A DNA stretch of 32,048 nucleotides from an uncultured Anaerolineaceae bacterium (GCA_964519845.1 CAZFLI010000001.1:1-32048); one strand, 5' to 3'; positions 11,352-14,900 are shown, numbered from the stretch's first letter. The notes: generated from the sequence alone by a model not told the origin. Translations and numbers: made by a program.

Positions 11352-11381
11352 TGCGCGATCCCCCTCGCCGACCTTACACTT
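11352..11381 (+). promoter_or_regulatory. Candidate sigma-70/sigA-type promoter of the met leader (-35 TTGCGC, 18-nt spacer, -10 TACACT)
   Basis: TTGCGC lies at 11352..11357 and TACACT (TAnnnT) at 11376..11381. The first ATG, at 11391, begins 10 nt after the -10 and has no SD. Confidence 0.35.
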
Positions 11382-11390
11382 CGGCCCCAA

Positions 11391-11501
11391 TGAACACCAG
11401 CACCGTCGGCCGCCAGGAGAACTCGCGCAGGATTTCCACCCTGCGCAGTTCCATGATGTCCATGCCCGGGCGGCCCCGACGTGCGGAGGACGGGGTCTGA
11501 G
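11391..11501 (+). other. Candidate near-leaderless leader mini-ORF (36 codons) containing M-M-S-M
   Basis: My translation is MNTSTVGRQENSRRISTLRSSMMSMPGRPRRAEDGV followed by a stop (TGA 11499..11501). It is too short for the track. Chance ORFs of this length are common in GC-rich DNA. Confidence 0.25.
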
Positions 11502-11545
11502 GTCTCGCTAGCCTGAGCGCAGCAGACCGAAGATCGGTCCCGGGG

Positions 11546-11576
11546 CCGCGGTTCCACAGAACCGCGGTTCTTTGTT
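11546..11576 (+). terminator. Intrinsic-terminator-like hairpin in the metY leader (CCGCGGTTC-caca-GAACCGCGG followed by TTCTTTGTT)
   Basis: It has a 9-bp perfect GC-rich stem (11546..11554 pairing with 11559..11567), a 4-nt loop and a T-rich tail at 11568..11576. It lies about 110 nt upstream of the metY start and about 205 nt downstream of the preceding stop. Confidence 0.65.
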
Positions 11577-11686
11577 ACTCCGGACGACACGACGGGCAGC
11601 CGCCGAACTGCCGCCCTCCCCCAGGGCACCCGGGACCCGTTGAGCGAACCTCTGCCGCGCAGGCGGCGCGTCCCAAGGAGAAACCC

Positions 11687-12994
11687 GTGTCCGAGAAGAC
11701 CCCTGCATTCCGTCGCGAAACCCTGGCCGTCCACGCCGGCCAGACCGTCGACCCAACGACGAAGGCACGCGCGGTTCCCATCTACGCCACTACGAGCTAC
11801 GTCTTCGACTCCGCCGATCACGCCGCGCGCCTCTTCGGGCTGCAGGAAGCCGGCAACATCTACACCCGGATCATGAACCCCACCACCGACGTCTTCGAGC
11901 AGCGCATCGCGGCTCTGGAGGGCGGCGTGGGAGCACTGGGCCTGGGCTCCGGCCAGGCAGCCGAGACGCTGGCCATCCTCAACCTCAGCCGGGCCGGCGA
12001 CAACGTCGTCACCAGCACGTCGCTGTACGGCGGGACCTACAACCTGTTCGCCTACACGCTGCCCAAGTGGGGTGTGGAGTTCCGGTTCGTCGACGGCTCC
12101 AAGCCCGAAGAGTTCGATCGGGCCGTGGACGGCCGAACCAAGGCCCTCTACGTGGAAACGATCGGCAACCCCCGCCTCGACGTCCCCGACTTCGAGGGCC
12201 TCGCCGCCGTGGCCCACAAGCACGGCATCCCGCTCATCGTCGACAACACCTTCGCCCCGATCCTGTGCCGGCCCCTCGAGCACGGGGCCGACATCGTCGT
12301 CCACTCCGCCACGAAATGGATCGGCGGGCACGGGACGGCGATCGGCGGCGTGGTGGTGGACGGCGGCAAGTTCGACTGGGCGGCCTCGCCACGCTTCAAG
12401 GCCGATTTCGTCGACCCGGACGAGTCCTACCACGGCGTCAGCTACACCGCGGCGGCCGGACCGGCAGCCTACATACTCAAGCTGCGGGTCCAGCTGCTGC
12501 GCGACCTCGGTCCGGCGCTGAGCCCGTTCAACTCGTTCCTGTTCCTGCAGGGCCTCGAGACGTTGCCGTTGCGGATCGAACGCCACAGCGCCAACGCTCT
12601 GGCGGTGGCCCGCTGGCTGGAGAAGCATCCGGCCGTGGACTGGGTCAGCTACGCCGGCCTCGAGTCCCATCCCGCCCACAAGTTCGCCCGCAAGTACCTA
12701 TCGGGAGGCTACGGCGGGATCGTCACCTTCGGCCTCAAGGGAGGCCTGGAGGCCGGCCGCAAGCTCATCGACTCGGTCAAGCTGTTCAGCCTGCTGGCCA
12801 ACGTCGGCGACGCCAAGAGCCTGATCATCCACCCCGCCTCCACGACCCACCAGCAGCTCTCGGCTGAGGACCAGATAGCGTCGGGCGTGACGCCCGAACT
12901 GGTCCGGCTGTCGGTGGGCATCGAGCACATCGACGACATCCTGGCCGATCTCGACCAGGCCATCGCCGCGGCCACGGGCATCGGGGCCCAGTAG
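11687..12994 (+). CDS. metY: O-acetylhomoserine sulfhydrylase (aminocarboxypropyltransferase), PLP-dependent
   Basis: GTG start with AAGGAG 6 nt upstream. The product reads [40 protein letters not shown]...[24 protein letters not shown], and the PLP lysine is in [11 protein letters not shown]. Confidence 0.92.
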
Positions 12995-12996
12995 CC

Positions 12997-14172
12997 GTGA
13001 AGCGGACCCCGGCGGTCAAGTGGGTTGCGGAGGGCCGCGGCACGTCCGCGCCCGCCGAATCCCCCGCCGGGGCGCCCGCCTTCGATCCGGGCGATCCGGG
13101 CATTTCGACCGCACGCTCCGACCCAGGTTTTCGTAGCGTTAGGGATGTGGATGCCAGCGGCGACTCCCAGACCGGCCGGATCGTCTCGCGCTGGCTGGGA
13201 CGGTTCGTCCTGGAGTCCGGCGCCGTCCTGCCGGACCTGGTCGCAGCCTACCGCCACGACGGCGTGCCGATCGGCGAGGGCCGCCAGATCCTGGTCGTCC
13301 ACGCCCTGACCGGCTCGGCCGACGCCGCCGGAGACTGGTGGGCGCCGCTGATCGGGCCGGGCCAGGCCCTGGACACGGACAAGTTTGGCGTCATCTGCAT
13401 CAACCTGCTGGGCAGCCGCTACGGCACCAGCGGCCCCACGTCGCGCAACGCCGTCACCGGCAAGCCCTACGGCCGAGCCTTCCCGCAGGTCACCGTGCGC
13501 GACCAGGCCCGGGCGCAATGGCGCCTGCTCGACGCCCTGGGCGTGCGCAAGCTCGCTCTTGCGGTGGGCGGCTCGCTGGGCGGCATGGTGGCCCTGGAGG
13601 TGGCACTGGAGCGTCCCGGCGAGATCAGCCGGGTCGTGCCGGTCGCGGCGCCGGCTCGCATCGGGCAGCTGGCCGTGGGCTGGAACCACATCCAGCTCGA
13701 GCTGGTGGACAAGCTGGGCCGGGAGGGCCTGGATCTGGCCCGCCAGCTGGCCATCACGACCTACCGCAGCGAGGTGGACTTCGAACAGCGTTTCGCCGGC
13801 CGCACCGAGCTGGACGGCACGCCCTCGGCCGTCAGCTACCTCCAGCATCAAGGACGGAAGCTGCTCGATCGGTTCGACGAGGACACATATCGCTGCCTGG
13901 TCCACGCCATGGACACGCACGATATCGGCCGGGATCGCGAGGGGCTCGTCCCGGCGCTGCGGCGCCTGGCCGCCTACGGCACGCGCCTGACCGGCGTGGG
14001 CATCGGGGGCGACATCCTCTTCGGCACCAACCAGGTGCGGGAGATGGTCGAGGCCGCTTGCGAGGCCAGCATGGACGCCGTCTACCGCGAGGTCAATTCC
14101 ACCAAGGGCCACGACGCCTTCCTGGTCGAGTGGGACCAGATGGCGGGGCTCCTCGCCGAGGCGCTGAAGTAG
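12997..14172 (+). CDS. metX: Homoserine O-acetyltransferase
   Basis: It contains FVLESGAVLPDLVAAYRHDG, VVHALTGSADAAGDWW, FGVICINLLGSRYGTSGP, the nucleophile-elbow VGGSLGGMVALE, and a late GHDAFL. The GTG at 12997 lies 2 nt after the metY stop. An in-frame GTG at 13147 is an alternative start, because the first ~50 aa are low complexity. Confidence 0.88.
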   Translation: MKRTPAVKWVAEGRGTSAPAESPAGAPAFDPGDPGISTARSDPGFRSVRDVDASGDSQTGRIVSRWLGRFVLESGAVLPDLVAAYRHDGVPIGEGRQILVVHALTGSADAAGDWWAPLIGPGQALDTDKFGVICINLLGSRYGTSGPTSRNAVTGKPYGRAFPQVTVRDQARAQWRLLDALGVRKLALAVGGSLGGMVALEVALERPGEISRVVPVAAPARIGQLAVGWNHIQLELVDKLGREGLDLARQLAITTYRSEVDFEQRFAGRTELDGTPSAVSYLQHQGRKLLDRFDEDTYRCLVHAMDTHDIGRDREGLVPALRRLAAYGTRLTGVGIGGDILFGTNQVREMVEAACEASMDAVYREVNSTKGHDAFLVEWDQMAGLLAEALK

Positions 14173-14391
14173 CGGAGGGCGGGTGGCGAGGCGGGGCGCC
14201 GCTACTGACCAACGATCATGAGACGGTCCCTGTGCGAGAAACGGCCGACTCACGGCGGCTCACGGACCTCGGATCCGACCAAAGGCAGCCGCCGATGGCC
14301 ACGGGCGGGCCTGATACGGCCTCGCACGCTCGGGCAATCGCCGATGCGGGGCTCCCCATCACAGTCCGCTGCGTCGCGTTCTGACTGGTGA

Positions 14392-14583
14392 TCACCTGGT
14401 GGTCGTTGAGCGTGCGTTGCTGCGGCCCTCGACCAGCAGCCGGACGACCTCGATCTCCCGCCCGTTGAGAGCGGGCAGCATCGCCGCATGGGGCTTGAGT
14501 CCAGACGCCAGCCCTCCGGCCGCGGCGCGCCAGCTATCGCGCAGGCCCCAGACTCGCTCCGGGCTGATCTGCTCTCGTCGCAA
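14392..14583 (-). pseudogene. Remnant of a LuxR/GerE-type HTH regulator (only the first helix region survives)
   Basis: The 63-aa ORF ends ...LPALNGREIEVVRLLVEGRSNARSTTTR followed by a stop. L-x-x-RE-x-EV-x-x-L-x-x-G-x-SN is the start of the LuxR C-terminal HTH, but the recognition helix (IA..L..S..TV..H) is missing in this frame. It is not convincingly recovered in the other two frames. There is no receiver or ligand domain upstream. Confidence 0.35.
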
Positions 14584-14672
14584 CGGAAGCTATCAAGCCG
14601 TCTCCGCCCCCTGGCCGCGGCCGTCCGCCGCGTGCCGCAGACCCCCGCCCCGCATCCGCGTTGGATGCCCTG

Positions 14673-14746
14673 GTGCATAATCCTATCCATTCACTCTGCA
14701 TATGCCATGCAAGACTTGCGCATATAGGCGCGGTCGTGCATAATCC
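14673..14746 (+). repeat. AT-richer island with a duplicated 11-mer GTGCATAATCC (63 bp apart) flanking the small palindromes TGCATatgccATGCA and GCGCatatagGCGC
   Basis: GTGCATAATCC occurs at 14673..14683 and again at 14736..14746. CATAATC also occurs on the minus strand at 21414..21420 upstream of cydA, which suggests a -10-type element. Confidence 0.55.
14716..14744 (+). promoter_or_regulatory. Candidate promoter of the dapB-dapA-dapD-lysA leader (-35 TTGCGC, 17-nt spacer, -10 CATAAT)
   Basis: TTGCGC lies at 14716..14721 and CATAAT at 14739..14744. The first ATG, at 14754, begins 10 nt after the -10 and has no SD. This is the same geometry and the same -35 hexamer as at 11352..11381. Confidence 0.4.
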
Positions 14747-14753
14747 GCCGACG

Positions 14754-14828
14754 ATGACCGCTCACCCGCTAGGCCTGCCCAAGTTCAAGCGCTGGCGGCC
14801 CCGCCGCATGGCCGGGCCCCGGGGCTAG
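14754..14828 (+). other. Candidate near-leaderless leader mini-ORF (24 codons) containing K-F-K
   Basis: My translation is MTAHPLGLPKFKRWRPRRMAGPRG followed by a stop (TAG 14826..14828). It is short and could arise by chance in GC-rich DNA. Confidence 0.25.
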
Positions 14829-14861
14829 CGCGTCCAGAGCGCCGGCCGGGGCAGGCTCCGG

Positions 14862-14900
14862 GGCCGCGACACCAGGGCAGGTGCCGCGGCCTTCTTCTAT
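14862..14900 (+). terminator. Intrinsic-terminator-like hairpin 41 nt upstream of dapB (GGCCGCGaCACC-agggca-GGTGcCGCGGCC followed by TTCTTCTAT)
   Basis: The stem is 11 bp with one A/C mismatch (14862..14873 pairing with 14880..14891), followed by a T-rich tail at 14892..14900. There is no upstream + strand gene for about 700 nt, so an attenuator role fits better than end-of-gene termination. Confidence 0.6.

Follow-up and report, generated by a model that had tools for sequence, protein, structure and literature searches.

Two amino acid biosynthesis operons, metY-metX for methionine (Met; 11687..14172) and dapB-dapA-dapD-lysA for lysine (Lys; 14942..18967), lie on the plus strand of a 32,048-nucleotide (nt) stretch of DNA, hereafter the window, from an uncultured Anaerolineaceae bacterium (GCA_964519845.1 CAZFLI010000001.1:1-32048; 71% G+C). 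Each operon is preceded by a leader in which an original prediction had recognized five features: a promoter, a start codon just behind it without a Shine-Dalgarno (SD) sequence, a mini-open reading frame (mini-ORF) with codons for the end product of the operon, a 10-mer just past these codons (box A), and a complementary 10-mer (box B) that opens a terminator hairpin. All five are present in both leaders. Our results make it likely that the Met and Lys leaders are two members of a single family of ribosome-mediated transcription attenuators in Limnocylindria (Chloroflexota), and we are less confident about the detailed order of events than about the involvement of the ribosome. Support for attenuation through an SD-less mini-ORF with cognate codons, as first proposed, comes from conservation, from covariation, and from a third class of leaders with cysteine (Cys) codons. 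The genes of the two operons are as follows.

11687-12994, plus strand: metY (NCBIfam homocysteine synthase NF006096, 730 bits, above the cut-off)
12997-14172, plus strand: metX (MetX TIGR01392, 8e-85)
14942-15742, plus strand: dapB (NCBIfam match)
15759-16787, plus strand: dapA (NCBIfam match)
16845-17654, plus strand: dapD (NCBIfam match)
~17650-18967, plus strand: lysA (NCBIfam match)

The coordinates first given for the leaders were exact for the Lys leader and for Met box B (11541-11550), and 1 nt too high for the Met -35 box, the run ATG ATG TCC ATG, and Met box A. The parts of the Met leader are listed here with the coordinates put right.

11351..11380, plus strand: promoter, read from the sequence; -35 TTGCGC at 11351-56, 18-nt spacer, -10 TACACT at 11375-80
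11390..11500, plus strand: mini-ORF of 36 codons plus TGA (11498-11500), peptide MNTSTVGRQENSRRISTLRSSMMSMPGRPRRAEDGV followed by the stop
11405..11414, plus strand: segment GUCGGCCGCC, partner of box A in minimum free energy (MFE) folds of ribosome-free RNA
11419..11451, plus strand: hairpin P0 within the ORF, RNAalifold consensus of 8 subclade members
11453..11464, plus strand: regulatory Met codons ATG ATG TCC ATG, in frame with the ATG at 11390
11469..11478, plus strand: box A, GGCGGCCCCG, 5' strand of the antiterminator; encodes (G)-R-P-R
11485..11489, plus strand: SD-like GGAGG, 5 nt 5' of the last sense codon, GTC (11495-97), which the stop follows at 11498-11500
11488..11540, plus strand: P2, a long hairpin nested in the helix of boxes A and B (A:B); the final sense codons and the stop lie in its 5' strand
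11541..11550, plus strand: box B, CGGGGCCGCG, with the 9-nt core CGGGGCCGC at 11541..11549; complements box A and forms the 5' arm of the terminator
11542..11576, plus strand: intrinsic terminator from a terminator scan; stem-loop 11542-11571, T-rich tract 11568-11576

TTGTT stands directly 3' of the hairpin at 11542-11571. The conserved Met pair consists of X1 (11456-58) and X2 (11462-64), and the ATG at 11453-55 is an additional Met codon of the window's subclade; box A starts 13 nt past the first base of X1 and 7 nt past the first base of X2. The Lys leader has the same layout.

14716..14744, plus strand: promoter; -35 TTGCGC at 14716-21, 17-nt spacer, extended -10 GTGCATAAT at 14736-44, -10 CATAAT at 14739-14744
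14754..14828, plus strand: mini-ORF, peptide MTAHPLGLPKFKRWRPRRMAGPRG followed by the stop; ATG 9 nt past the -10, without an SD
14781..14789, plus strand: regulatory Lys codons AAG TTC AAG (X1-x-X2)
14794..14803, plus strand: box A; relatives have CCCUG, compensated in box B
14810..14857, plus strand: P2, with the stop codon TAG (14826-28) within its 5' strand
14859..14902, plus strand: box B and terminator; box B 14859-67 (10-mer 14859-14868), hairpin 14860-14893 with one bulged A, T-rich tract TTCTTCTAT at 14892-14902

We assembled 40 homologous leaders from Limnocylindria genomes and metagenomes (L numbers denote collected loci). The closest relatives of MetY, searched in a one-genome-per-species collection, share 74-87% identity and come from metagenome-assembled genomes (MAGs) labelled Limnocylindria/Limnocylindrales or 'uncultured Chloroflexia'. 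At seven of these loci the region 5' of metY aligns with the window and has an invariant core, ATG-NNN-ATG-NNN-KGG-CGG-CCC-CGM-CG..GGAGG..TGA, followed by GGTCCCGGGGCCGCGG and then by a hairpin with compensatory changes and a T tract. The dapB leader is found in L001 and L003 as well (AAR-TNN-AAG-CGC-TGG-CGG-CCC-YGC-CG, with a synonymous AAA in L001), and orthologues of the Lys mini-ORF in six relatives read K-x-K or K-x-K-x-K. Its promoter is kept in L001, L003, and L201-L205, and the gene order dapB-dapA-dapD-lysA was also called in relatives. Further contigs were fetched by protein homology without any RNA pattern, four distinct ones through DapB and four through CysE. In each of the four DapB-route contigs, metY-metX is preceded by a Met leader and dapB-dapA-dapD-lysA by a Lys leader; in each of the four CysE-route contigs, a Cys leader precedes cysE-cysK. 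In addition, a single metagenome scan, run with a pattern in which boxes A and B were fixed, yielded ~20 genuine leaders, most of them of the Met type before metY, amid a majority of chance matches in coding DNA. The leaders stay with their operons even though the upstream neighbors differ.

Some candidates were set aside. Covariance-model matches at L119, L003:4476, and L192/L123 are coding or unrelated, matches to GGCGGCCCCG in L002 (4211), L005 (9628), and L080 are unrelated, and the doubtful L085 (WKKW), L118 (WWSAWW), L178 (LKL), and L173 either lack a terminator or lie inside coding sequence. A near-identical stretch in L123 (~10486-10635, minus strand), L192 (8810-8959, plus strand), and L111 (~1399-1548, plus strand) is a chance match to the A/B pattern (24 bits, model R1); Rfam offers no match for it, and it does not belong to the attenuator family. 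A scan of viral contigs returned no family members.

The cognate codons sort the leaders into three classes that correspond to the genes downstream.

Met class, n = 26: 20 before metY, 2 before OsmC-like genes, 1 before an SCO4226-like gene, 3 with the downstream gene unknown or cut; ATG at X1 and X2 in 25, ACG at X1 in L158
Lys class, n = 7: all before dapB; AAA or AAG at X1 and X2
Cys class, n = 7: 6 before cysE, 1 before a beta-carbonic-anhydrase-like gene; TGC or TGT at X1 and X2

The register X1-x-X2-n-n-CGG-CCC, in which CGG-CCC belongs to box A, is fixed in 38 of the 40 leaders and is one codon longer in L187 and L210. Before metY, X2 is ATG in 20/20 leaders and X1 in 19/20; before dapB, both positions are AAA or AAG in 7/7; and before cysE(-cysK), they are TGC or TGT in 6/6 (L141, L187, and L207-L210). 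The middle codon is free, being TCC, GCC, TGT, GGC, CTC, GCG, or GTC in the Met class and TTC, TCG, TCC, ACC, or GTA in the Lys class. Within the Cys class, the codons C-L-C in L187 precede cysE and cysK, with CysK above the NCBIfam cut-off, C-F-C in L141 precede a serine-acetyltransferase-like gene, and C-C-C in L109 precede the beta-carbonic-anhydrase-like gene (3339-3917, minus strand). The 17 nt after X2 (CGCTGGCGGCCCCGCCG) are identical between the Met leaders of L006 and L057 and the Lys leader of the window, and the cognate codons differ. Standing before cysE-cysK, the Cys class, which the original prediction had not noticed, lends strong support to the codons as the sensor. A natural single-codon variant occurs in L158 (~2188-2316, minus strand), where X1 is ACG (T-C-M for M-C-M) in a leader otherwise near-identical to L130 and L161.

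Several lines of evidence bear on translation of the mini-ORFs. In essentially all 31 leaders checked (five automated start assignments were fixed by eye), an ATG or GTG without an SD stands 6-9 nt past a -10-like hexamer, which usually lies 17-18 nt after TTGACN/TTGCGC. Relatives of the Met leader keep TTGCGC/TTGACN and an nAnnnT -10 box with the ORF start 6-9 nt later, and in the window 9 nt separate the -10 from the ATG at 11390, again without an SD. Because the start follows the -10 so closely and an SD is absent, the leader messages, that of the window's Met mini-ORF among them, would be leaderless or nearly so; mycobacterial leaderless mRNAs also begin with AUG or GUG (bioRxiv 10.1101/834739). 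The leader ORFs comprise 15-40 codons in a conserved frame. Their N-terminal parts vary in sequence and length, and the frame always runs from start to stop; in the 26 Met-type leaders the frame, the start position, and the tail are all kept. Insertions and deletions in the ORF come in multiples of three: L001 and L204 carry a 15-nt insertion, L187 and L210 one of 3 nt, and L098 a deletion of 3 nt. The noncoding loops, by contrast, vary by arbitrary lengths. Synonymous codons alternate at X (AAA/AAG, TGC/TGT), and between classes the X positions change exactly as the genetic code prescribes. Of the outcomes that the original prediction had named as refuting, those that could be checked did not occur; in particular, relatives keep the mini-ORF frame, the start next to the -10, and the cognate codons in a fixed register. 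The distance from box A to the stop codon is 19 nt in most Met leaders; it is 16 or 22 nt in Lys leaders and 10 nt in Cys leaders of the cysE type, with 19 nt in L109. Gene callers left the mini-ORFs uncalled in every fetched contig.

Two elements within the reading frame deserve mention. Hairpin P0 ends 1 nt 5' of the Met codons, and the in-frame insertion in L001 and L204 lengthens its stem and so meets coding and structural constraints together; P0 is a candidate RNA polymerase pause or synchronization hairpin. Farther downstream, GGAGG occurs exactly 5 nt before the last sense codon in 21/26 Met leaders, in L109, and in 4/7 Lys leaders (L001/L003/L203/L204). The spacer bases behind it differ (AUGGG, UAUCU, ACGCU, GCCCU), and in cysE-type Cys leaders an AGGAGG abuts the stop codon. 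We hypothesize that GGAGG might hold the terminating ribosome on the antiterminator.

The downstream half of the leader can form two mutually exclusive helices. Box A (GCGGCCCCG) pairs with box B (CGGGGCCGC) over 9 bp, and this A:B helix closes P2; alternatively, box B pairs as the 5' arm of the terminator. Across 27 sequences A:B is 99% paired with one compensatory pair. The original prediction had proposed covariation between the boxes as a check, and it was found: CCCCG:CGGGG is replaced by CCCUG:CAGGG in L205 and by CCCUG:(G)AGGG in L001, L003, and L204, all of them leaders found without the pattern. Pair counts for P2 are 78-82%, and the structure of A:B plus P2 is 88% paired, compared with 31-58% for slid controls of the whole structure. 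When the segment from A to B is folded alone, A:B plus P2 is the MFE structure in 28/28 leaders. The terminator stem is 93% paired in 27 leaders (slid controls, 45-57%), with 30 double-change cells versus 9.5 in shuffles, and the stem of the Lys terminator likewise covaries across leaders. Nearly all leaders have the hairpin and T tract, a clear T tract being absent from L189.

Folding with a ribosome mask favors the classical direction of control. In ribosome-free full leaders the terminator is the MFE structure in 37/38 and the A:B helix appears in 0/38, with at most 3 bases of box A touching box B. Box A is instead paired with sequence farther upstream (11405-11414 in the Met leader of the window) or with a local or downstream partner (Lys leaders and the CGC-TGG subclade). 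The upstream pairing spans 6-9 bp in MFE folds of the window, L001, L002, L005, L144, and L201-L205, and the GCCGCC of the upstream segment is kept in 5/8 aligned subclade members; GUCGGCCGCC (11405..11414) is a candidate anti-antiterminator, or 'region 1'. With the RNA masked to X2+7 as by a stalled ribosome, A:B becomes the MFE structure in 17/38 leaders, including the Met leader of the window, and the median cost of leaving the terminator falls from 12.4 to 6.5 kcal/mol, being lower in 35/38. A ribosome at the stop codon masks box A in the Cys class only, where A:B drops from 8 to 0 bp in 5/6 cysE leaders and to 4 bp in L187.

Measured from the first P-site base, the helicase site of the ribosome is ~11 nt away; structures that stimulate frameshifting lie 5-9 nt past the A-site codon. 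The first paired base of box A is 5 nt past the X2 codon. Because the 4-5 nt between X2 and box A are about the shortest spacer tolerated at the mRNA entrance of the ribosome, a helix can persist at box A, and X2 is about the last stall position that leaves box A usable. The original prediction had been unable to derive a rule by which starvation gives read-through, as a pause at the last cognate codon seemed to cover box A. That difficulty is largely resolved by the spacer geometry and by the stall mask, which removes the competitor of box A; it persists insofar as box A of the Met and Lys classes is free when the ribosome is at the stop codon.

Other conserved sequences accompany the switch. 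Immediately after the T tract of the Met terminator, at 11577-11606, stands a conserved (C)CUCCGR..CGACGGGYRRCCGCC, found at the same position in most Met-type leaders and in L109; its CCUCC is anti-SD-like and complements the leader GGAGG, and its GCCGCC complements the 5' half of box A. The Met promoters of L004, L130, L152, L158, L161, and L189 have a perfect TTGACA just 7 nt 5' of an extended -10 (TGnTAnGGT), the usual spacing being 17 nt. In the Lys leader, three to four copies of TGCATA(W) (GTGCATAAT, CTGCATAT, GCGCATAT, GTGCATAAT) lie in and just 5' of the dapB-leader promoter (14672-14745) and are kept in relatives (L001 ~9060-9130, L003, and L201-L205 ~9700-9790). The copies could be a transcription-factor operator on top of the attenuator.

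The data above establish the anatomy of the leaders, its conservation, the match between codons and operons, and the exclusive, covarying helices. The sequence of events that follows is inferred, from the start point of transcription and the reading of the mini-ORF to the stall and the succession of folds. Transcription would start at, or 1-3 nt before, the start codon of the mini-ORF, so that a 70S ribosome could load without an SD. It would then meet the two end-product codons in their register, X1-x-X2-n-n-CGG-CCC, with box A, the antiterminator 5' strand, following 4-5 nt past X2. When the cognate charged tRNA is scarce, the ribosome would stall once X1 or X2 occupied its A site. Held immediately 5' of box A, it would block the sequestering partner of box A, whether this is the upstream segment (as in the window's Met leader) or a local or downstream one (as in other leaders). 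P2 would fold, and the emerging box B would pair at once with box A and stack on P2. With A:B formed the terminator could not form, and RNA polymerase would read into metY-metX or dapBAD-lysA. When the amino acid is plentiful, the ribosome would instead cross box A and enter the P2 5' strand, which carries the stop codon; after its release box A would be re-sequestered, box B would pair with the downstream arm, and the transcript would end at the U tract. In the Met and Lys classes, termination would need at least one of three conditions: a ribosome on the P2 5' strand, steric hindrance, or rapid re-sequestration of box A after release.

A number of results weigh against this interpretation. 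Box A is almost invariant, which limits the A:B covariation, and 17/40 leaders were retrieved by the pattern that fixed boxes A and B; because of that pattern, independent A:B covariation rests on the protein-homology leaders, chiefly five Lys leaders. With the stall mask applied and the full terminator present, the terminator is still the MFE structure in 21/38 leaders, including the Lys leader of the window, and therefore read-through would be kinetic. For Met and Lys leaders, placing the ribosome on the stop does not cover box A and hardly alters the equilibrium energies. We accordingly rejected equilibrium folding with a stop-codon ribosome as an account of Met and Lys termination; because box A is uncovered at the stop, termination under sufficiency would have to depend on kinetics, sterics, or re-sequestration. 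Met-type leaders also precede genes with no obvious link to methionine, namely the OsmC-like genes of L083 (611-1129, minus strand) and L143 (1586-2107, minus strand) and the SCO4226-like gene of L152 (296-832, minus strand). Judging from their leaders, these genes and the beta-carbonic-anhydrase-like gene may belong to Met or Cys/sulfur regulons. A covariance-model search of ~1.2 Mb of collected loci gave no class beyond the three amino acids. Finally, the organisms are uncultured and represented by MAGs and metagenome contigs, and the start site, leaderless translation, and termination are deduced from sequence.

Could the resemblance between the two leaders be an accident of G+C-rich DNA, in which ordinary terminators of upstream genes are followed by ordinary promoters? 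The two 10-mers are not special in themselves: in the window the 10-mer was found 2 times versus 1.39 expected and the 9-mer core 5 times versus 4.7, neither being enriched. Likewise, of the metagenome matches to the composite pattern, on 120 stretches, ~100 (~80%) are chance occurrences inside G+C-rich coding DNA. The composite of the core and its reverse complement at 40-90 nt is another matter, with 2 sites in the window versus 0.014 expected; of 2000 dinucleotide shuffles, 28 contained one or more. Furthermore, the promoter lies upstream of the terminator rather than downstream, and family members score 43-131 bits with the covariance model versus at most 32.5 bits for other matches. Conservation argues most strongly against chance: in every related contig examined this architecture stands 5' of orthologous operons, even though the genes farther upstream differ. 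The comparative data in effect refute the chance reading, to which we assign next to no probability. A sensor of uncharged tRNA similar to a T-box is scarcely more credible. It would share with our leaders a codon matching the amino acid of the pathway, as a specifier does, and an antiterminator/terminator pair; yet the Rfam T-box model is unmatched even at E<=10, and there is no Stem I, specifier-loop architecture, or T-box sequence. Two, sometimes three, cognate codons spaced by one codon are present, the ORF frame is conserved, and the UGG beside box A is variable (GGG, CGG, AGG, TTG, CAG), so that a bulge able to pair with the tRNA NCCA end is not preserved.

Metabolite riboswitches on a common scaffold, for S-adenosylmethionine (SAM) or Met, lysine, and a cysteine-related ligand, would turn the 'codons' into ligand-specificity nucleotides. 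Nucleotide conservation from X1 to the stop is indeed very high, with invariant stretches even though the metY proteins are only 74-87% identical, and these operons are under riboswitch control in other phyla (PMC1262725). Against this, the classes differ in just two in-frame triplets, which coincide exactly with the cognate codons; synonymous codons take turns there, the triplet between them is unconstrained, the start codon keeps its distance from the -10, and indels leave the frame intact. Such a scaffold would have to tell apart three ligands of unrelated chemistry through two triplets lying apart, the rest of the RNA being the same. The original prediction reported no match by eye to SAM-I, SAM-IV, T-box, or L-box cores, and the Rfam riboswitch and T-box models agree: 11250-11750 and 14600-15000 gave no Rfam match at the gathering score or at E<=10, and seven related loci gave none at the gathering score. 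We regard a riboswitch as very improbable. Somewhat less remote, though still unlikely, is a translated sensor ORF with a different logic or level of action: an RPRR arrest peptide, a stall at X2 that covers box A and promotes termination, or a mainly translational output through the conserved CCUCC after the terminator. With box A 4-5 nt past X2, a stalled ribosome might occlude part of it; a stop-codon ribosome does not cover box A of Met and Lys leaders; GGAGG and CCUCC flank the switch in most Met leaders; and mycobacterial Cys mini-ORFs are reported to act by unmasking a ribosome-binding site (RBS) (bioRxiv 10.1101/834739). An inverse logic, however, would shut biosynthesis off in starvation. 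Outside R-P-R/C-R, which box A encodes, the tails of the peptides vary with class (AEDGV, LEVSA, EARP, RRRR), and the family as a whole therefore shares no arrest peptide. Two findings speak against a translational output: nearly all leaders have a terminator that covaries and ends in a U tract, and the 5' untranslated region between the Met terminator and metY has no significant fold (z = 0.24).

Ribosome-mediated attenuation of transcription thus remains our preferred reading, and it has well-known counterparts. The leaders resemble trpL, hisL, leuL, thrL, pheL, and ilv of Proteobacteria and the trp leaders of Corynebacterium and Streptomyces, in which a short ORF carries codons for the end product, antiterminator and terminator exclude each other, and a stalled ribosome selects the antiterminator (PMC1183508; PMC1262725); trpL likewise has just two regulatory codons. 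Unlike these classical attenuators, the Limnocylindria leaders are unmatched by Rfam Trp_leader, His_leader, Leu_leader, Thr_leader, Phe_leader, and others. Their ORF has no SD and sits at the 5' end, their cognate codons are spaced as X-x-X and border on the antiterminator strand, a single homologous chassis is used for three amino acids, and the phylum is Chloroflexota. Naville and Gautheret (2010) described leader peptides as known from Proteobacteria and Actinobacteria only, to which they added Firmicutes (PMC2965389). Seliverstov et al. (2005) detected no RNA element at Met or Lys operons of Actinobacteria and noted that riboswitches control these pathways elsewhere (PMC1262725). The original prediction knew of no described Met-codon leaders, and our literature search, which covered journals incompletely and may have passed over an earlier description, found neither Met- nor Lys-codon leader-peptide attenuators, nor attenuation in Chloroflexi.

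In style, the nearest analogue is the mycobacterial system of leaderless polycysteine small ORFs (sORFs), the Cys 'ribulon' of Canestrari et al. (bioRxiv 10.1101/834739), in which leaderless AUG/GUG mini-ORFs with Cys codons near the 3' end, upstream of cysteine operons, act as ribosome-pausing sensors. Among our leaders, a leaderless sORF with Cys codons before cysteine genes is found in the Cys class only (L141, L187, and L207-L210). According to Canestrari et al., the mycobacterial elements act on translation, the stalled ribosome blocking structures that sequester a downstream RBS; a conserved terminator hairpin was not seen by Seliverstov et al. (2005) among the cys leaders of mycobacteria (PMC1262725). 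Whereas the mycobacterial elements have runs of Cys codons, the Limnocylindria leaders have two spaced codons, an intrinsic terminator, an A:B antiterminator, and a chassis that also serves Met and Lys; with the terminator covarying and the region from terminator to metY unstructured, an output by RBS sequestration without a terminator does not fit them.

Premature termination controls the same kinds of genes (metY/metX, dap/lysA, cysE/cysK) in other phyla through SAM riboswitches (SAM-I/II/IV/V/VI and SAM-SAH, the last shared with S-adenosylhomocysteine), the L-box, and the T-box. SAM and lysine riboswitches and T-boxes sense a ligand or tRNA without translation, and none matches the Limnocylindria leaders at E<=10 (gathering score for the seven further loci). 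To our knowledge, Met and Lys in the bacteria studied are sensed by riboswitches, T-boxes, or proteins. What appears to be new here is the amino acid specificities, the phylum, the leaderless ORFs, and the use of one chassis for three specificities; the mechanism itself would be classical leader-peptide attenuation. We lean toward a broader view in which a single evolvable chassis has been retargeted by swapping two codons, the Met and Lys leaders are the first ribosome-stalling sensors for these amino acids, GGAGG may park the terminating ribosome, and further classes may exist. If true, this would make Chloroflexota the fourth phylum with leader-peptide attenuation, represented by an uncultured lineage abundant in soil and freshwater, and would add as sensed amino acids Met and Lys, which were thought to be sensed at the RNA level only by riboswitches or T-boxes. 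Three specificities on one homologous scaffold, essentially two codons apart, would represent a natural experiment on the evolution of attenuator specificity and a compact, portable design for synthetic amino acid sensors. In addition, the covariance model could seed a new RNA family, and regulons derived from the leaders could help assign gene function in MAGs, for example for the OsmC-like and beta-carbonic-anhydrase-like genes.

The surroundings of the leaders offer a few further observations. The ORF 5' of the Met leader (10565-11341) has no family match, and the ~540 nt from metX to the Lys-leader promoter (14173-14715) contain no ORF with one. At that place L201 and L203-L206 carry a two-component system and sometimes ABC genes, and because of this the lineage of the window appears to have lost these genes. 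Elsewhere, the sole match in an Rfam scan of the window is a thiamine pyrophosphate (TPP) riboswitch (RF00059, 74 bits; 29860-29968, plus strand). It lies directly 5' of an ORF (29981-31288) with an ABC_cobalt/ECF-type permease domain, the product of which is probably a thiamine-related transporter.

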